Below are positions 259 to 24,237 of a stretch of DNA of 64,000 nt, one piece after another. The position numbers and the translations under genes were made by a program. The notes below the pieces were generated by a model. It saw nothing but the letters and a program-made list of their open reading frames with translations, did no database searches and was not told where the DNA came from. Location: assembly GCF_044324785.1 (NCBI RefSeq), contig NZ_CP172127.1. The stretch is one strand, 5' to 3'. The stretch comes from Escherichia coli. GTDB lineage: Bacteria > Pseudomonadota > Gammaproteobacteria > Enterobacterales > Enterobacteriaceae. The stretch's first letter is position 1; each line of letters begins with the position of its first letter.

Positions 259-2379
259 TTAGAACTGACTTTTAGAACTGCCTTTCAGTGTCCGGAGAAT
301 ATAAAAAACCATATTGCAATAACCTTTCAGAGAGATAAAACATATTTCAATAAAACTCTTTAAAATATTGTCTCGTTTAATTTTATCATTCCACTCTTGC
401 CATAGTGAATCACGAGAAAACGTTGCTCTGACATAATTAACATTTTGTTCATGACTCATTGGCATAATCTTCAGACCAATTTTATTATTGTAGGCATGAA
501 CTATTTCTACCGGTATATCACACTTTCCGTTACTATCATCCAGATAAAGAGACAACCGCTGTGTTTTAACAATATTTTTTACGTCGGAGATATTATCAAG
601 GATAACGCCTAATCCTCCTTCGGAAAAATCAAGAACAGAACAAGGATAGCTCCGTCCATCTTCCAGTTGTATAACGCCCTTGAAAGAAACATCAATACGG
701 GGAGAAAAACGCACCTGCTTTTGTTCAATAGAAACAGCCAAAGTTGCGCCAATAATAATTGTATTATAAAACAGCCAAATCAAACAAAAAAAATTCAGGA
801 TGGCGATATGCCCTTGCAAACTATAAACATTAACAATACCTATTATCAGTCCAATTACATTTAAAATGGCAAAAATAAGATAGGGGTAGGAAATTCGCCA
901 GTCAACAAACTTATTTTTTATCAGCCCTCCTTTGGCCGTAACGTTGAAACGCCCTTTTGCTGGTGCAAGTAAAGCTACAAGAGTTGGTAGCGTAATATAC
1001 CAAGCCAGAACCATTTCATAAATCTCATTCCAGAATGAATGTCTGTATTTACCCTGTACTCTTGAATTAGTTAAAATAATAACAAATAAATAAGGTAAAA
1101 CATAAGACATAATATCTGCAACCGATGCTTCGATCAGGTTGACCGAAAAGAAAATAGGACATAACGGTGCGAACAAGAAAATCAGTCGTGGCACACCTGA
1201 TAAAAAATGCATCATGCTGCTGAGATAGCAAAGGCGCTGTGATAATGTCAGCCCCTTGCCCAATAATGGATTGTCAATACGCAAGATTTGAATCATGCCT
1301 CGAGCCCATCGAATCCGTTGTCCAATATGAGCAGACAATGTTTCTGTGGCTAGCCCGGCAGCCAGAGGATAGCGAAGATATGCAGAGCTATAACCTGCAC
1401 GATGCAAGCGTAACGACGTATGCGCATCTTCAGTTACTGTTTCGACTGCAATGCCTCCAACCTCATCCAGAGCAGATCTACGGATGATTGCACATGAACC
1501 ACAAAAAAATGAAGCATTCCATGTATCCGTACCATTCTGGATTAACCCATAAAAAAGGTGTCCTTCATTTGGCTTTTGCCGAAACTGCCCCAAATTTCGC
1601 TCAAAAGGATCGGGGGAAAAAAAATGATGTGGTGTTTGCAACATCGATAATTTTTTATCTGCAATAAACCAGCCCATCGTTTTCTTTAAAAAAGATACCG
1701 AGGGTATATGATCGCAATCGAAAATAGCAACAAATTCGCCATTAGCTATTTTAAGCGCATTATTTATATTTCCGGCCTTAGCATGTTCATGTGTTTCTCT
1801 TGCGACATAGTAAATTCCTGACTCGTTCGCAAATTTCCTGAACTCATCCCTGGCGCCATCATCAAGGATCCAGATATGTAATTTATCCTTTGGCCAGTCT
1901 AAAGCCAACGCACCATAAACTGTATTCTTCACGACTGTAAAAGGTTCGTTATATGTGGGTATTAATATATCTACGATGGGCCATTCTTCTTTATTCTCTG
2001 GTAAAGGTATACTTTCTCTGTTCAGCGGGAAGCAAACCTGAAAGTAACCAAGTAATAAAACAAACCAAGCATACGTTTCAGCAGTTAATAACGTGACTGA
2101 AAATAAGCAGTCTGGAAATTCATTCAGGATGACTGAAGAAGAGTACCGCCACCATAGATATCGGGATGAGATGAGTATTCCAACACCCATTAATATCAGG
2201 GTAATCATCCTTCCCTTGAACAAATTAAGGAAAATGACAGCGATGCAAATAATAATTGAAAATAATATTTGTTGATAAAATCCAAGTGGCTGCTCAACAA
2301 TTGATAAAAAGACAAAACATAGCAATATAGCAACAACCAAAAGGATTTTGTTTAATATTTCTTTATTTTTTAAGATCAT
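259..2379 (-). CDS. Processive family-2 glycosyltransferase, cellulose-synthase (BcsA)-like, with C-terminal PilZ c-di-GMP-binding domain
   Basis: 706 aa with multiple TM segments. Catalytic motifs visible in the translation: IPTYNE, DDG, FDCDH, QTPHHF, FFCGSCAIIRRSAL, TED, QRIRWARG (QxxRW). C-terminal PilZ signature RFSPR...DFSEGG. Gene is visibly AT-rich. Confidence 0.8.
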   Translation of the reverse strand: MILKNKEILNKILLVVAILLCFVFLSIVEQPLGFYQQILFSIIICIAVIFLNLFKGRMITLILMGVGILISSRYLWWRYSSSVILNEFPDCLFSVTLLTAETYAWFVLLLGYFQVCFPLNRESIPLPENKEEWPIVDILIPTYNEPFTVVKNTVYGALALDWPKDKLHIWILDDGARDEFRKFANESGIYYVARETHEHAKAGNINNALKIANGEFVAIFDCDHIPSVSFLKKTMGWFIADKKLSMLQTPHHFFSPDPFERNLGQFRQKPNEGHLFYGLIQNGTDTWNASFFCGSCAIIRRSALDEVGGIAVETVTEDAHTSLRLHRAGYSSAYLRYPLAAGLATETLSAHIGQRIRWARGMIQILRIDNPLLGKGLTLSQRLCYLSSMMHFLSGVPRLIFLFAPLCPIFFSVNLIEASVADIMSYVLPYLFVIILTNSRVQGKYRHSFWNEIYEMVLAWYITLPTLVALLAPAKGRFNVTAKGGLIKNKFVDWRISYPYLIFAILNVIGLIIGIVNVYSLQGHIAILNFFCLIWLFYNTIIIGATLAVSIEQKQVRFSPRIDVSFKGVIQLEDGRSYPCSVLDFSEGGLGVILDNISDVKNIVKTQRLSLYLDDSNGKCDIPVEIVHAYNNKIGLKIMPMSHEQNVNYVRATFSRDSLWQEWNDKIKRDNILKSFIEICFISLKGYCNMVFYILRTLKGSSKSQF

Positions 2380-2463
2380 TATACTTAGCGATTCATTAAC
2401 AATACAGCTTGAATAGTGTGATTTTTATAAACATTGATGACCAATGCCATGCAAATTTAAATA

Positions 2464-3795
2464 TCAACACCACGTTATCTGTGCTCTGCCATTTTGCTTA
2501 CTTTTGTATAACCGTTCATCTGCCAGCAATTTCAACCGTTCAATGTTATTCATGCACTCATCTGTACTGGCAACTCCTATGCTGCAACTACAATTTAACC
2601 CACCGATTGCGAAATGAACAACTCTGTGCAAAATTCTTGATAGTTTATTTTTATCTTTCTCATAATAAATAATAGCAAACTCATCACCGCCAAACCGGTA
2701 TATTTCCCCTTCACGACGGGGTAACTCATCTTTAATAAGGTTAACAAGTTTGATGAGTACTTCATCACCAAACAGATGGCCAAACTTATCATTAATGGTT
2801 TTAAATTTATCCACATCAAATAGACACAGGTAGCCAAAATTCTTGCTCAGCATCTTGATTTCCTTATCAAAACTCCGACGACCAGAAGCCCGAGTTAATG
2901 CATCACAAGTGCCAAAGTCATATATCTCTCGAATTGCATTAATCTCTTCCGTATTAAAGAATAGATTTTCTCCACATAAATCATATTGATGATTCGATAA
3001 TATAGATTCTTTTTCCAATCTACCCTTATTTATAATATTTCGTAGTAATTTAATATAATAAACATACAGTATAACTGCAGATATTGCCGATGCAAAAACG
3101 AATAGCATACATATATAGAGATATTTACTTTTTTTATAGGCAACAATAAACATCATTTCTGGAAGGTAAGAATACGACAGAGTGATAGCTGACATCTCAA
3201 ATACAGCATCATTTATCAAAAAATCATCACCTGTGATTTTCTTTTCATTATCATTAATATCATAAAATGAGATATAGATATCTTCTCGTTCCCCTGACTG
3301 ATTTCTAATCAAAGATAAATAACGTTCAGGATCTACCACTGATATCAAAATTGTTCGTTTGGCAATGGGATGAGCATAATAAACATAGTACTTATCTTTT
3401 AAACCAATAACACCTCTCTCAAATTCGTTCATTACTCGAATAGAGGAAACTATGTCGCCACAAAAATCATCCCCTTTCGTTGTAACTTTGATACATTTAC
3501 CATCGCTAATAATATAAGGACCGAGATCATACAAATATCCAGGATTTTCATAGCCAGCAAAGCTATTGCGTATTTTTTTTACCAATTCTTCTGGGGCAAT
3601 ATCTAGTTCATAAAATATATCATTAGATACTGAGCGGCGATACTCAGAAACATTAGCTATTGCAAGCCCACTATCTACAATAGATACCTTCACCGAATTA
3701 ATGCGGCCCTTAACATAAATGGTGTATAAATAACAAGTTACTACAGCGACGAACAAAAAACAGATTACTGCCGCCTTTTTCTTATATTTGAACAT
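2464..3795 (-). CDS. Membrane-anchored diguanylate cyclase (GGDEF domain) with predicted periplasmic sensor region
   Basis: 443 aa; N-terminal TM, ~190-aa loop, second TM, then a GGDEF domain with an intact RFGGDEF motif. No obvious RxxD I-site immediately upstream of the motif. AT-rich; 4-bp gap to the upstream EAL gene. Confidence 0.8.
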   Translation of the reverse strand: MFKYKKKAAVICFLFVAVVTCYLYTIYVKGRINSVKVSIVDSGLAIANVSEYRRSVSNDIFYELDIAPEELVKKIRNSFAGYENPGYLYDLGPYIISDGKCIKVTTKGDDFCGDIVSSIRVMNEFERGVIGLKDKYYVYYAHPIAKRTILISVVDPERYLSLIRNQSGEREDIYISFYDINDNEKKITGDDFLINDAVFEMSAITLSYSYLPEMMFIVAYKKSKYLYICMLFVFASAISAVILYVYYIKLLRNIINKGRLEKESILSNHQYDLCGENLFFNTEEINAIREIYDFGTCDALTRASGRRSFDKEIKMLSKNFGYLCLFDVDKFKTINDKFGHLFGDEVLIKLVNLIKDELPRREGEIYRFGGDEFAIIYYEKDKNKLSRILHRVVHFAIGGLNCSCSIGVASTDECMNNIERLKLLADERLYKSKQNGRAQITWC

Positions 3796-3799
3796 TGCT

Positions 3800-6148
3800 T
3801 TATTTTCTTTTTTTCGGTTTGCTGTCTATATGCCATTCTGAAAACGGTAGCGGTTTCTGGTATAAGTATCCCTGAACATGAGAGAATCCTAATTTTTGCA
3901 ATTCTCTGGCCTGACTTTCAGTTTCAACACCTTCAGCTATTACCGGCATATTTTCTTCACGAGCAAGGCTGGATATAAAGTACACAATTTTGTTAGTTTC
4001 GTTGAAAATACCAGAGGTAAACTCTGAATCAATTTTAATACTATCAGGTCTTACTTTATAAAGTTTTTTCAGGTCAGCTAATCCACTACCGAAATCATCA
4101 AGAGAAATCTTGATACCGTTTTCTTTTAAAATGTTTATATTATTGTAAAAGCTATCATTTATATCTTTTACTGCTGACTCGGTGATCTCCAGACAGATTT
4201 GTTCAGCATTTACATCAAATGCATTAATTAAAGTAAGAACACGAGTGTGGAAGTCAATTTCATTTAATTGCCATGGAGAAACATTGATATGCAGGAGAAA
4301 ATCGTTAGCAACCTCATATTCACGGCTAAAGGCACCAAATTCGCTAATAGCCGTTTCGAGAATAAAATCACCCAGTTCTTTAATTAATCCTATTTCTTCA
4401 GCAACAGGTACAAAAATTGATGGCGGTATTGCCCCATTTTCGACGGATAACCAGCGGCATAACGCCTCAGCACCGACAACCCTATTATTATCCATATCAA
4501 CAATCGGTTGATATACTAAATAAAGTTCACTACTCAAAATCGCTTTTTTTATATTTCCTGCCACCCAGACCTTTTGATCAAGTTCATGAACTTTGATATC
4601 ATCATAAAACATAAATTCAGATTCTTTATTTTCCCGCATAGCTGTTAATGCCAGTTTCAACTTCCCTTCATAAATCGAAACATTTTCCCCTGAAAAAGTT
4701 TCACAAATGGCAATCTTATGAATATAAATATTTCTTATGCAAAATATATGTTCAGGGAAGTTTAAAACAGATAATCTTTCGATGAACTCTTCGCAGTGCG
4801 TGTGGCACAGCAACAAGTATGTTTCAGTTGAGAATTTTACGATATCACAATATTTTGAATATTTTTGTGAAATCTTCGATTTTATATCATTAACAATTTC
4901 ATAAAATTTCTGACTTCCATATATCGCCTCAACAAACTCTAATCCATAGATGCAAAGCATACCAACTGCCAAATAGGTTTTATTATTAGTTTCAATAACA
5001 GCCTTATTAATATAGAAACAACTTCCTTGTTCATAGGACACAAGATTAAGTAAACGGTCCATACGCTCCTTGTATTTATCACTGATATTATTAATGATTT
5101 TTTTGAGTTCAACAATTTCGCTACTATCATTTTGCACAATATCAATTGTGTCATTGCGATATACTGAGTTAGCTAATTTTTTCAGATGTTCTATTAGTTT
5201 ACTGGATTCTCGTTTAATTTTTTTTGTTATATTTTCAACGATATACCATAATAAACAGAAACAAACCAAGCCACATAAAAACATCAATGTAAAATATTTA
5301 TTGATGTTTGCATCTTCTGCTTTTTGATAGTAAAAGTAATGGAATCTGACATCAGGAAGCCTGGGGAGTGAGATAATATTGTCTGTATAGTTTCCACTAT
5401 TATTACTTATGTTATAACTTCCCGATGACTCACGGACAATAAGATGTAACATTGATTTTTCATTACCTACCATTATCCTTTTATTTTGTTCCATGAATAG
5501 AATATCAGCATCACTACCTAGTTTATTTAAAAAATTACTGAAATATTTTTCATCAAGATCCAGATGCATTAACTTCAGAGCAAATGAATCTTTTTCTTCT
5601 TCGGATGGCCGTAGTGAAAACGAAAAACATTTTTTTCCGGCAATACCATAACAATTATACCATGGTGACCATTTTGAATAAGTCCCTGCCGGTAATTTAT
5701 TCCAGGGGCGTGATTCCGGGTTAAAGTAGTTATCGCTAATATTACCATCGTCCCCAATAAAAGGTTTGCCGGCTTCTGATTTCCCCAGGAATTTTACCTC
5801 ACCATCCTCAGTTCGAATAAAGCTAAGATAGTTTCCATTATTGAGCATTATCCCTACTAAATTAACAGCGTCTATTTTTTTCATGCGATGAAGGACTGCT
5901 CGCTTTATTTCACCTTCATCATTTAACAGATAAATTGCATCTTTTAATGCATCAGCCTCTTTTTCAACTTTAGAAAAAAAATTATTCAAATTGTTATTGA
6001 TGAGTATAAGGTTAATCCGTGAAGAGTTTTCTGCTATTTTTTTATGGAAGTCAATTGCGGTAATAAATGAAAAGACAATATAGACAGTAACAGCTAATAT
6101 AACCGCAGTGTTAAATCTTGAGTTTAATTTTTCGGTAATGCTATACAT
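3800..6148 (-). CDS. Membrane sensor c-di-GMP phosphodiesterase (EAL domain) with large periplasmic region
   Basis: 782 aa; two TM segments flanking a ~260-aa loop. C-terminal EAL domain with conserved YQPIVD, GAEALCRW, EITES, LDDFGSG, IKIDSEF, AEGVETE and QGYLYQKP motifs. First gene of an apparent three- or four-gene minus-strand operon. Confidence 0.8.
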   Translation of the reverse strand: MYSITEKLNSRFNTAVILAVTVYIVFSFITAIDFHKKIAENSSRINLILINNNLNNFFSKVEKEADALKDAIYLLNDEGEIKRAVLHRMKKIDAVNLVGIMLNNGNYLSFIRTEDGEVKFLGKSEAGKPFIGDDGNISDNYFNPESRPWNKLPAGTYSKWSPWYNCYGIAGKKCFSFSLRPSEEEKDSFALKLMHLDLDEKYFSNFLNKLGSDADILFMEQNKRIMVGNEKSMLHLIVRESSGSYNISNNSGNYTDNIISLPRLPDVRFHYFYYQKAEDANINKYFTLMFLCGLVCFCLLWYIVENITKKIKRESSKLIEHLKKLANSVYRNDTIDIVQNDSSEIVELKKIINNISDKYKERMDRLLNLVSYEQGSCFYINKAVIETNNKTYLAVGMLCIYGLEFVEAIYGSQKFYEIVNDIKSKISQKYSKYCDIVKFSTETYLLLCHTHCEEFIERLSVLNFPEHIFCIRNIYIHKIAICETFSGENVSIYEGKLKLALTAMRENKESEFMFYDDIKVHELDQKVWVAGNIKKAILSSELYLVYQPIVDMDNNRVVGAEALCRWLSVENGAIPPSIFVPVAEEIGLIKELGDFILETAISEFGAFSREYEVANDFLLHINVSPWQLNEIDFHTRVLTLINAFDVNAEQICLEITESAVKDINDSFYNNINILKENGIKISLDDFGSGLADLKKLYKVRPDSIKIDSEFTSGIFNETNKIVYFISSLAREENMPVIAEGVETESQARELQKLGFSHVQGYLYQKPLPFSEWHIDSKPKKRK

Positions 6149-18666: not shown

Positions 18667-19421
<755 letters not shown>

Positions 19422-19525
19422 ATCAGCATACTTGTCCTTAGCCTTCTGCAGTGACAGCTGGTAGTACAGCGTGCTTCTGGCCAGCCCTGCAGCCTTTAAC
19501 AGGTCAGACTGGCAGTGTCCGCACC

Positions 19526-20056
19526 TCAGGCTCCGGATGACTTTCGTTTTTTCTCCAGCTCCTGGCGCTTTTTTTCCAGGAGATGCTCCTGCATGGCTTT
19601 CAGATATGCATTTTCTGCGCGAAGATAACGCAGCTCATTCTTCATCTCTTCCGGCGTCATGTTTGCCTCGTTTTCATGGGTATCATCAGAACGGGTCATG
19701 CTTTTCTCCTTCCTGCGCCTGATAAAGGCCTCATTACCAGATTTGCGGTAGCCTTTTATCCAGTTTTTAACCGTGTTGTGGCTGGGAATGTTAAACCGGG
19801 CAGCTACCCGGGGTAGAGACTCAGAATGCCCGAGAGCATAAAGAACCACGCAAAGTTTATCTTCAGGAGAATAGCTACGCTTGTGTCTGCAATCCAGTGC
19901 CCGAGGACCGTGAAGAAGAAAAAGATTAATCCAGTGTGAGAGGCTGGTGTGAGAAAGTTGAAAGAGTTTTGCCGTAGAAATGATGCCTGCATGACCAGCC
20001 AGGTAATGATTTACAGCGGCAAGTTTTACTTCAAATGAATGTTTCATAAACTGCAC
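19526..20056 (-). CDS. IS3-family transposase OrfA (HTH DNA-binding)
   Basis: 176 aa with an HTH region and a C-terminal leucine-zipper-like coiled coil (ELRYLRAENAYLKAMQEHL). Confidence 0.75.
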   Translation of the reverse strand: MQFMKHSFEVKLAAVNHYLAGHAGIISTAKLFQLSHTSLSHWINLFLLHGPRALDCRHKRSYSPEDKLCVVLYALGHSESLPRVAARFNIPSHNTVKNWIKGYRKSGNEAFIRRRKEKSMTRSDDTHENEANMTPEEMKNELRYLRAENAYLKAMQEHLLEKKRQELEKKRKSSGA

Positions 20057-20102
20057 CTTCAGATGTCAGATTATGTCCAACATTTGGGGTGCAGTTCATA
20101 CC

Positions 20103-20130: not shown

Positions 20131-23100
20131 TTAGTCAAACGGCGGTGGGGCCAGCACTTCACGATTACCGTTGTGCCCCTGTTCGCTGACAATCCCCTGC
20201 GCTTCCATCTGTTCGATAATACGCGCTGCACGGTTATAACCAATGCGGAACTGACGCTGTACGCCAGAAATTGATGCTTTGCGTTTTTCAGTGACAAACT
20301 GCACCGCCTGATCGAACAACGGATCCAGTTCTTCAGCGCCATCGAAACCGCCCGCGCCACCTTCGCTTTCACTGTCGGAGGTGATGCCATCAACATACTG
20401 TGGGCGACCACGCGCTTTCCAGTCCTGCACCACGGCATGAACTTCCTGATCGCGAACAAAAGCACCATGAACACGTACCGGCAACGTGGAGTTCGGCCCA
20501 GAGTAAAGCATATCCCCCATACCCAGCAGTGATTCCGCGCCAGCCTGATCAAGAATGGTACGTGAGTCAATCTTACTGGATACGGTAAAGGCGATACGGG
20601 TCGGAATATTCGCTTTAATCAGACCAGTAATAACATCAACCGATGGACGCTGCGTTGCCAGTACGAGGTGGATACCCGCGGCACGGGCTTTTTGCGCCAG
20701 ACGTGCTATCAGCTCTTCCACTTTTTTACCTACCGTCATCATCAGGTCGGCAAATTCGTCCACCAACACCACAATGTACGGTTCTTTTTTCAGCACCGGA
20801 TGCTGGGCATCCATACTGTCACCCGGCTTCCAGTACGGGTCTGGAATCGGACGCATCATCCTATCGGCTTCAGCAATTTTTTCGTTATAACCCGCCAGAT
20901 TACGCACACCCAGCGCAGACATCAGTTTATAACGACGCTCCATCTCGTTAACACACCAGCGCAGCGCGTTGGCGGCATCTTTCATATCAGTAACGACTTC
21001 CGTTAACAGATGCGGGATGCCTTCATAAACCGAAAGCTCCAGCATTTTCGGGTCGATCATGATGAAACGCACATCTTCTGGCTGTGCTTTATAAAGCATG
21101 CTCAGGATCATCGCGTTCACACCGACAGACTTACCGGAACCGGTAGTCCCCGCAACCAACAAGTGCGGCATTTTCGCCAGATCGGCAACCACCGGCTCAC
21201 CGGCGATATCTTTACCCAGCACCACGGTTAATGGCGACGGATTATCGCGGAATTTGGCGTTATCCAAAACTTCGCGCAGATATACGGTTTGTCGTTTTTT
21301 ATTCGGTAACTCCAGACCTACATAGGGTTTGCCAGGAATAACTTCAACGACACGCACCGCCACCGTCGAAAGTGAACGGGCAAGGTCCCGTGACAAGTTA
21401 GAAATGCGCGCCGCTTTTACGCCCGGTGCCAGGTTCAATTCAAAGCGAGTGATAACCGGCCCCGGAGAATAATTGACGACATCGGCTTTAATACGGAAAT
21501 CAGCCAGACGCGCTTCCACCAGACGCGCCATTTGTTCAAGCGCAAAGGTATCTACCGGCTCCACTTCGCTCGGCGGAGGTGTCAGCAAATCCAGAGAAGG
21601 CAGCGGCGTCGTCGGTTTATGCAACGGACGGCTGTCGCCATTACGCATCAACAGCGGATGAAGCAGGGTATCCTGCGGCTGTGGCGCAACTGGCTGTTGT
21701 GGCTGCTGATACTGCGGCTGCGGTGCAACCGGTTGTTGTGGCTGCTGATACTGCGGCTGCGGCGCAACCGGTTGTTGTGGCTGCTGATACTGCGGCTGCG
21801 GTGCAACCGGTTGTTGCGGCTGCTGATATTGTGGCTGCGGCGCAACCTGCTGTTGTGGCTGCTGATACTGCGGCTGCGGCGCAACCGGCTGTTGCGGCTG
21901 CTGATATTGCTGCTGTGGCGCAACCGGCTGTTGTGGCTGCTGATACTGCTGCTGCGGTGCAACCGGTTGTTGCGGCTGCTGTACAGGTTCAACAATTGGC
22001 GTAAACAACGGTTCGTGTGGACCATCATCCAGCAACGCTTTCATTGGCGAAAATTCAAAATCATCCAGCGAGAACGGATTCGCCCCAGCCGGTTGTTCGC
22101 CGGAATAACGTTGTTGTTGAGTTTGCGCAAACTGACGAGCCAGTTCAGCCTCTGCCGCAGCATCTGCATCTTCTGCGTTTACGGGCACATCATGTTGATA
22201 CTGTTCGCCATAGCGTTGCTGCTGTGTCTGGGCGAACTGACGTGCCAGTTCATCCTGCTGCATCGCATCGATTTCATCATCGTTGTACTGATCGCCAGAA
22301 TCGTACTGATTGCGCTGGGCTTCACGGGCTTTTTCTTCCGCCGCACGCTGTGAGGGCAGCTTAATACCGTAAGACGCCAATTCACGACGAGTTGGCACGC
22401 GGATACGTTTCGGTCGTGGCAACTGCGGGCCAATCCCCTCTTTGACCTGCGGACGCGGTCCAGCGCTATTTGCCAGACTGAAGACTGGCGCGGCAACGGT
22501 TGCGGCAGCCCCCGTCGCCAGTGTCGCTTTTTTCACGCCAGATGCCAAAGGGGAAACAGCGGCAGCGGCTTCCACTGGAGGTACTGCTGCAACAGAAGGT
22601 GCTTTCAGCGAAGATTTGATCGGTTCTGGTTCTTTAACCGGTTCAGGAATCGGTTGATACCAGGCTGCAAGTTGTTCACGTTCACGGGCTCGCTTCTCTT
22701 CCACTTCTTCAAAGTAGTAAAGCGGCGGACGCGCGGGTTTTGTCTCTTCTACAACGGGTTCAGGCTCCACAACAGGCTGCTGTTCAACAGGTTGCGGCTG
22801 TTGGTACAACGGCTCCTGAGCGACTGGCTGCTGATAAGTTTGCTCAGTCTGGTATGTAGACTGTGGAGCAAAAGTGGATTGCTGCTCTTCGGCTTGCCAG
22901 GCGTTACCTGCCACCGATTGTTCTGGCGCAGGGGCGTAATACGGCTGTTGCGCAGACTGTTCCGCCGCAGTTGCATAATACGGCTGCTGAACAGGTTGTT
23001 CCGCCGCAGGCGCATAATACGGCTGCTGTGGCTGTACAGGTTGTTGCAGCGGCTCATTATATTGCACTGCAGGCTGCGCATATTGTGGCTGCTGTGGGTA

Positions 23101-24237
23101 ACCTTCCGGTGCAGGAGCAATCACCGGCTCTCCCGTTTGTGGCCCCGGTACAGGCTGCCAGGCTACTGTAGGTTGTGCAGGTGCAACATCAACAGAGGCA
23201 ACAGATGGCGTCTGAGTCACAGGTTCAACCGGTGCAGCCCAGCTTTGCGTCGCCGTGGTAGCAGCAGCTGCTACAGCAACAGGTTCGGTAATTGGCGCAC
23301 CGTTTAATAATGGATCGTACTCGTCATATTCTGGCTGCGTTGCACGATTGCCCGAAAAGAGGACGTCGTCAGGGTCGGCAGCCACACCGCGTGCAGTGTA
23401 GGTAATCTCTTCGTCATCATCCATCCGCTTACCGGAGAACAACGCAGCGTCTGTTTGCCGCCCCATCGGATTAATGAATTTTTCCGCCAACCGTTTACGA
23501 CGCGCTAGCGCGCCGCGAAGAATACGAGCACGGCGTGATTCATGCTGTTTGCCGTGATTTTCATCTTCATACTCTTCGTCATCTTCATACTCATCTTCAT
23601 CGACCCAGGTATCATCGCGACGGGTACGATTACTGGCGAAGGTGAGAATGTTTAAAATCCAGCCGCCGAGTTTTTCAGCAATGGTCACCCATGACCAACC
23701 GGTGAACAGCGTCAGACCCGCAGCCCAAACGCAGAGCAGCGCAATAGTTCCCCCGCTACTGTGTAGCAGTGGTTGTAGCGTAGTGCTTAGTAAGCTGCCA
23801 ATGACGCCACCGGAGGCAAAATACCAGATATCGTCAGCGTTGATTGCCGCCAGACCACAGGAGGTAAGGATGAGCGCCAAAACGCCAATGATGCGTAGCG
23901 AAACGGCAAAATAATCAATGTATTCGTCGCTGGACTGATGACGCCAGGCAAACCAACAACCGCCGACAATAATGACGGGAATGGTGTAAGCCATCACGCC
24001 AAAAATAAAGAACAGCGTATCTGCCAGCCATGCACCGGGCATCCCACCTAAATTATGGATAGGTTCATGCCAGGCCGTTTGCGACCAGCTGGGGTCCGAA
24101 GGGTTAAAGCTTAGTAAGGCAGCCATCAACCAGACGGCAAACAGGACAATAAGGATCAGCAACGCCTCCAGAAGGCGGCGGCCGCTACTTAACTTTGTCA
24201 ATGTGACTTCTTTGTCTTCAGTGTATTCCTGGCTCAA
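20131..24237 (-). CDS. ftsK: DNA translocase FtsK
   Basis: 1368 aa; N-terminal TM domain, long Pro/Gln-rich linker, C-terminal motor with Walker A GTTGSGKS. Confidence 0.9.
21680..21990. repeat. In-frame tandem 39-bp repeats within the ftsK linker (encoding [13 protein letters not shown] units)
   Basis: About 7-8 near-identical copies of ctgctgatactgcggctgcggtgcaaccggttgttgtgg read directly from the sequence. Confidence 0.8.

Follow-up and report, generated by a model that had tools for sequence, protein, structure and literature searches.

The 39-bp tandem repeat in the FtsK linker of an Escherichia coli genome is the known typing locus CVN001

The tandem repeat at the end of the FtsK linker encoded in the window (the whole 64-kb stretch of E. 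coli DNA that was analyzed) is CVN001, an already known 39-bp VNTR of E. coli ftsK, and the allele that the window carries is an ordinary one. We refer to this repeat as array 1 and to a second, smaller repeat in the same gene as array 2; the coordinates of both, together with those of the other features discussed, are collected in table 1. Taken as a whole, the account that we favor, in which array 1 is the CVN001 VNTR, gains and loses units by slippage or unequal exchange, and lies in a tether that tolerates changes in its length, is in our judgment highly probable.

Table 1. Features in and around the repeat arrays of ftsK, in window coordinates
Feature	Position	Strand	Basis or remark
ftsK CDS, DNA translocase FtsK, 1368 aa, TTG start	20131-24237	-	ORF (4107 nt), Pfam, and RefSeq match
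FtsK_alpha (PF17854), aa 879-979	21301-21603	-	Pfam; first folded domain past array 1
Antisense ORF, 273 aa, through array 1; periodic low-complexity L/R/W peptide	21532-22353	+	Repeat artefact
CVN001 original reverse primer site, GGCGGCGGTGTCAGCAAATC, 1 mismatch	21572-21591	+	Primer from PMC8143711, Table 1
Antisense ORF, 141 aa, through array 1	21579-22004	+	Repeat artefact
CVN001 redesigned reverse primer site, exact	21581-21602	+	Primer from PMC11773471, Table 1
Same-strand out-of-frame ORF, 126 aa, through array 1	21648-22028	-	Repeat artefact
Array 1, eight in-frame 39-bp units, FtsK aa 753-856	21670-21981	-	Tandem Repeats Finder and reading in the ftsK frame; CVN001 allele 7
CVN001 forward primer site, ACAACCGGCTGGGGCGAATCC, exact	22076-22096	-	Published primer match
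Array 2, second in-frame 39-bp array, aa 404-442, 2.8 copies (Tandem Repeats Finder)	22919-23028	-	Tandem Repeats Finder and K-12 alignment

Array 1 and the typing locus CVN001

The gene that contains the array encodes a member of the FtsK/SpoIIIE translocases: all four Pfam domains, that is, FtsK_4TM (PF13491, aa 20-191), FtsK_alpha, the FtsK_SpoIIIE motor (PF01580, aa 987-1200), and FtsK_gamma (PF09397, aa 1303-1363), score well over their cut-offs, and the matching gene is labeled ftsK in every E. coli RefSeq record examined, strain N3 among them. No Pfam domain covers aa 192-878. Reviews describe the linker of FtsK as unstructured and Pro/Gln-rich, with a length of ~650 aa in E. coli that differs among species, and report that FtsK needs it to function normally and that it makes contact with further proteins of the divisome (PMC5357621; PMC3870252). 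Array 1 makes up the final 104 residues of this Pro/Gln-rich disordered linker. The crystallized E. coli FtsK motor construct of PDB entry 2IUS (512 aa) aligns to aa 857-1368 of the window protein and thus starts at the residue directly after array 1 (aa 857, window position 21669); in the Pfam and PDB comparisons, neither a domain model nor a solved structure spans the array.

Tandem Repeats Finder reported a repeat at 21673-21981 with a period of 39 bp, 7.9 copies, 90% matches, no indels, and a score of 485, and a separate repeat search found copies spaced exactly 39 nt. The periodicity is far beyond chance because identity at a lag of 39 nt is 90.1%, compared with at most 37% over 2000 shuffles of the same bases. 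Reading in the ftsK frame gives eight complete units of 13 residues each, ending in (P/Q)QY, in agreement with a preliminary description of this DNA that had counted seven to eight near-perfect 13-residue (39-bp) repeats in the FtsK linker. That description had placed them at 21680-21990, where the array indeed lies, although each end is off by ~10 nt. In order, the units comprise one peptide type present twice, a second and a third present once each, a fourth present three times, and a distinct terminal type, whereas at the DNA level all eight are distinct (types ABCDEFGH); exact runs shared between units are 38-44 nt long. The 104 residues consist of 51 Q, 29 P, 8 V, 8 A, 7 Y, and 1 D.

CVN001, with its 39-bp unit, is part of the generic E. 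coli MLVA (GECM-7/GECM-10) of Lindstedt et al. (2007, J Microbiol Methods 69:197), as referenced in PMC5217547. The locus has also been written "CNV001 (ftsK)" and given redesigned primers (PMC11773471, Table 1), and the original primers are listed elsewhere together with the allele formula (PS-250)/39 (PMC8143711, Table 1). Each of the CVN001 primers has one single site in the 64-kb window, and together they bracket array 1. In silico, the original pair is predicted to yield an amplicon of 523 bp (21572-22094), and (523-250)/39 = 7.0 gives allele 7 for the window; the allele in K-12 is 5. Array 1 therefore has the flanking primers of CVN001, its 39-bp unit with an integer amplicon, its location within ftsK, and its polymorphic copy number, and we found nothing in which the two differ, allele 7 corresponding to eight units with the MLVA offset absorbing one of them.

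Copy number of the two arrays among E. coli genomes

FtsK of the window has 1368 aa, and the length of 1329 aa that the preliminary description had given for K-12 is confirmed by FtsK of MG1655. Protein alignment assigns 26 of the 39 extra residues (two units) to array 1 and the remaining 13 (one unit) to array 2, which has three copies in the window and two in K-12; for array 1, the comparison is therefore eight units with six, not eight with five.

From a ranking of 5,426 complete genomes of E. coli we took a systematic sample of 60 evenly spaced records. Two 300-bp flanking segments, joined with the repeat excluded, served as the megablast query, and the matched span was measured in every sampled genome; this flank-only query produced one clean span per genome, whereas with a query containing the repeat the match was fragmented in 10 of 60 rows. 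Seven units were most frequent (26/60, 43%), followed by six (21/60, 35%) and by eight, the state of the window (6/60, 10%). Nine units were found in 2/60 genomes (3%) and a single unit in 1/60 (2%), while 3/60 (5%) were 24 nt off register (about 4.4 or 6.4 units) and 1/60 (2%) gave a partial match, in a record with ftsK annotated as frameshifted. Alleles with five units are also present in other E. coli genomes, as seen with the repeat-containing search and among the parsed alleles described below. At the short extreme, the one-unit FtsK is 1277 aa long (strain B2) and occurs on 68 public contigs from several sources; at the other, public proteins reach 13 units in array 1 and FtsK lengths of up to 1446-1461 aa. 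In a search with the full-length protein, in which bit scores favor longer arrays, the best 120 hits were all from Escherichia or Shigella.

The expectation that the locus is strain-variable is thus borne out, with 1-9 units in complete genomes and as many as 13 among public proteins, and comparison of ftsK from multiple strains shows unit counts that differ from one another and, in the window, from the K-12 reference. Calling the array "expanded", as the preliminary description did, is accurate relative to K-12, but eight units are an ordinary allele found in ~10% of genomes, close to a mode of seven. The sampled unit counts, which correspond to the MLVA allele after subtraction of one, closely match the published frequencies of CVN001 in Swedish isolates, among which allele 5 accounts for 40%, allele 6 for 40%, allele 7 for 13%, and allele 8 for 5% (PMC5217547, Table 3). 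The locus appears to change slowly: ST131 isolates nearly all share one CVN001 allele (PMC3407997), and records that adjoin each other in the flank-identity ranking mostly have the same copy number.

Array 2 resembles array 1 in that it lies in the same gene, has the same 39-bp/13-aa period, is Pro/Gln-rich, and is polymorphic (2-5 copies), but it has another unit sequence and fewer copies, and its units are less alike, with an inter-unit identity of 83% and a longest exact run of 17 nt. Among the 60 complete genomes, two copies are present in 19, three in 18, and four in 22, with one odd length; five copies occur in some public proteins. We found no description of array 2 as a typing locus in the literature. 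FtsK proteins of 1368 aa occur with 8+3, 7+4, and 9+2 units in arrays 1 and 2, respectively. Strain differences in ftsK length thus stem from two 39-bp arrays and, because these vary independently, the CVN001 allele cannot be read from protein length alone.

Two individual genomes deserve mention for their relation to the window. In strain N3, both arrays are identical to those of the window, the IS1397 insertion is missing, and the 3' end of ftsK differs; IAI39 has the IS position in common with the window and shows 118 nt differences in ftsK. Outside the genus, Salmonella enterica carries a 39-bp repeat of 9.3 copies in ftsK, STTR7 (= SENTR2), which is a standard MLVA marker (PMC2430564). 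It is like array 1 in its period, its location in the Pro/Gln-rich FtsK linker, and its use in MLVA, and unlike it in belonging to another genus, with putative orthology resting on the literature and on the matching position. An indel in Salmonella ftsK has been described at P757-Q784; its size is 84 bp, which is not a multiple of 39 (PMC6137255).

Gain and loss of units and probable tolerance of the linker to length

We assigned a letter to each distinct 39-nt unit and wrote alleles as letter strings, which allowed 16 alleles of array 1 to be parsed. The differences among them consist of entire units or of unit blocks. KMi029 (IJLMN) has lost one unit relative to K-12 (IJKLMN), CRE444 (APAPCDQRS) carries a two-unit duplication, the same pair being present three times in one public protein, and the 13-unit protein of P0109 corresponds to a 7-unit allele in which a block of six units has been duplicated. 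The alleles that are 24 nt shorter hold a truncated unit, QQPQY, and their sequences fit a deletion between copies of the octamer CAGCCGCA at a distance of 24 nt from each other in the unit. All 16 parsed alleles, the 24-nt variants included, are in frame.

The proposal that the locus is prone to recombination is supported indirectly, by these whole-unit and block differences and by the exact inter-unit repeats. Over their 38-44 nt of exact identity, neighboring units would permit replication slippage or unequal sister-strand exchange, and such events may occasionally add or delete whole units or blocks of units; this reading is suggested by the fact that alleles differ by whole units with the reading frame kept, as it would be in each change because the unit of 39 nt is 3 x 13. 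At the protein level, the Pro/Gln-rich unstructured spacer links the DNA-pumping motor (alpha/beta/gamma) with the septal membrane anchor, and if this tether tolerates varied length, alleles of 1 to 13 units could persist as lineage markers. The window carries the eight-unit allele, two units longer than that of K-12. Both the mutational mechanism, whether slippage or unequal exchange, and the near-neutrality of copy number are what we infer from these comparisons.

Among 43 distinct in-register units, variable sites number 3, 4, and 11 at codon positions 1, 2, and 3, respectively (11 of 18 at the third position), and pairwise comparison of the eight units of the window gives 81 synonymous and 26 nonsynonymous codon differences. 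This third-position bias and the 81:26 ratio indicate that purifying selection acts on the unit peptide as read in the ftsK frame and that the peptide is better conserved than the DNA. The units are not constraint-free and might do more than act as a passive spacer. We concluded that array 1 is a length-tolerant part of the tether whose composition is somewhat constrained; length tolerance is suggested because the one-unit FtsK is found on 68 contigs and because an allele swap in Salmonella was without effect, exchange of alleles two repeats apart having left survival in egg white, the sole phenotype tested, unchanged (PMC6137255).

Conservation of the unit peptide despite synonymous divergence would also be expected if copy number were functionally tuned, setting the reach or stiffness of the tether or the number of binding motifs for a divisome partner, with lineage lengths kept by selection and not by drift. 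The Tyr that recurs every 13 residues and a distribution centered on 6-8 units with rare extremes are compatible with such tuning, as are the literature reports of contacts between segments of the linker and FtsZ, FtsQ, FtsL, and FtsI and of filamentation after deletions in the linker (PMC5357621). However, both the widespread one-unit allele and the 13-unit alleles exist, the Salmonella swap left the one phenotype tested unaltered, and array 2 varies independently, leaving the total length of the linker not constant. Moreover, our literature search found general statements on the linker and the Salmonella swap, and no study that ties FtsK repeat number to function or phenotype in E. coli. We therefore regard tuning of copy number as unlikely, and it is quite unlikely that the units of array 1 together with array 2 determine the effective length or the valency of the FtsK tether, such that lineage copy numbers would be adaptive settings of the coupling between septum closure and DNA pumping.

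If tuning did occur, the FtsK linker would be a cytoplasmic analogue of the variable-length "periscope" proteins (PMC8201768), in which in-frame repeats of strain-variable copy number likewise make the spacer that separates an anchor from a functional domain longer or shorter. The repeats of Periscope proteins are folded domains of surface proteins and have been proposed to regulate surface interactions, whereas array 1 is a disordered cytoplasmic linker of 13-residue units. Array 1 does not itself belong to the Periscope proteins: it is cytoplasmic, between the membrane domain and the motor, in a region (aa 192-878) that matches no Pfam domain, and its units are built from Q, P, V, A, and Y.

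Reliability of the count and alternate-frame ORFs

Assemblies built from short reads are often interrupted at this locus, with many of the FtsK entries labeled "partial" in public data ending at aa 759-791, within array 1, and one complete genome has a frameshifted ftsK, which raises the question of whether the repeat was mis-expanded or mis-collapsed in the window. This is very improbable. Assembly error at array 1 is unlikely because strain N3, an independent complete genome, matches the window with 100% identity over 1,101 bp that span the array, because the identical 1368-aa protein is present on 264 public contigs, and because the eight units are all distinct in DNA, so that their order is resolvable; the frequency of eight-unit alleles among the complete genomes sampled also speaks against it. 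Nevertheless, as draft assemblies break inside array 1, copy numbers taken from drafts need care.

A tandem repeat in a coding region whose copy number varies among strains might also be taken for a contingency locus, that is, a phase-variable switch for ftsK expression. At contingency loci, a change in copy number shifts the reading frame or promoter spacing, whereas the unit of array 1 is a multiple of three (39 nt = 3 x 13) and 16 of 16 parsed alleles are in frame; in addition, the gene is essential for division, and the locus is nearly monomorphic in clones such as ST131 (PMC3407997). The phase-switch reading is effectively refuted.

Long ORFs in other frames cross array 1 because five of the six frames of the array, with its CAG/CCG-rich unit, are free of stop codons. 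The preliminary description had called the antisense ORFs repeat artefacts, and the lack of stops, the concentration of variation on third codon positions of ftsK, and the RefSeq records examined, in which no feature other than ftsK is annotated over the array, all agree with it. It is scarcely credible that any of these antisense or out-of-frame ORFs of 126-273 aa is a genuine overlapping gene, since the unit without stops accounts for their presence, their products are periodic and of low complexity, their length shifts with each change in copy number, and unit variation that is synonymous in the ftsK frame is therefore nonsynonymous in the others. Long ORFs crossing array 1 should not be annotated as genes.

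With array 1 in use as a typing marker since 2007 and the window carrying an ordinary allele, the repeat matters little beyond bookkeeping. The natural alleles of 1 and 13 units nonetheless provide a ready series for testing the effect of linker length on FtsK.

Repeat variation in the FtsK linker

Besides array 1, the 39-bp repeat of eight units that is typed as CVN001, the FtsK linker carries a second in-frame 39-bp array (array 2). This FtsK is 39 residues longer than that of K-12, and array 2 supplies 13 of them. Array 2 is polymorphic in copy number in E. coli, with two, three, and four copies each accounting for roughly one third of our 60-genome sample and a maximum of five copies among public proteins. 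We found no naming of array 2 as a typing locus. Two smaller repeats were also identified in FtsK: an 18-bp tandem repeat encoding a 14-residue acidic stretch a little past the membrane domain, and a 14-residue linker motif present in two copies that lie 35 residues apart.

Repeats in ftsK and the adjacent insertion element (window coordinates)
Feature	Position	Strand	Size or copies	Location and remarks
Array 2	22919-23028	minus	39-bp in-frame repeat, 2.8 copies	FtsK aa 404-442; units resembling a 13-residue motif
18-bp tandem repeat	23561-23601		18 bp x 2.3, 9-bp substructure	Inside ftsK, around aa 213-226
Dispersed duplication	22105-22146 and 22210-22251		Non-tandem	FtsK linker, aa 663-676 and 698-711
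IS3-family element	18667-20098		1432 bp	lolA-ftsK intergenic region; IS1397 by annotation in E. coli IAI39

A single-unit allele and signs of assembly or sequencing difficulty at array 1

In the swine strain B2 (NZ_CP082327.1; ftsK at 1759-5592 of the extracted locus L003), FtsK is 1277 aa and array 1 is reduced to one hybrid unit. The exact 1277-aa protein is present on 68 public contigs; therefore, the single-unit form is a genuine, naturally circulating allele, and a one-off assembly error was rejected on the same grounds. Among the public proteins that cluster with the window's FtsK are many "partial" entries of 759-791 aa that end within array 1 and are contig breaks in short-read assemblies. 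Together with the annotation of ftsK as frameshifted in the complete genome of strain CRE10 (L008), these entries indicate difficulties in assembling or sequencing the array 1 repeat.

Flanking insertion and the 3' end of ftsK

The IS3-family element sits within a REP-like palindrome on the 3' side of ftsK, approximately 30 nt past the stop codon. A query spanning the insertion junction was matched over at least 80% in only 2 of the 5,426 complete genomes, namely IAI39 and JNE12-007, and N3, an independent complete genome in which both arrays are identical to those of the window, lacks this insertion between lolA and ftsK. Comparison of ftsK between the window and N3 revealed 27 nucleotide differences, 26 of which are bunched in the terminal ~520 nt at its 3' end (20191-20653), where they result in a single amino acid change, E1290D. 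This cluster looks like a recombination tract, which suggests that ftsK may be a mosaic gene.
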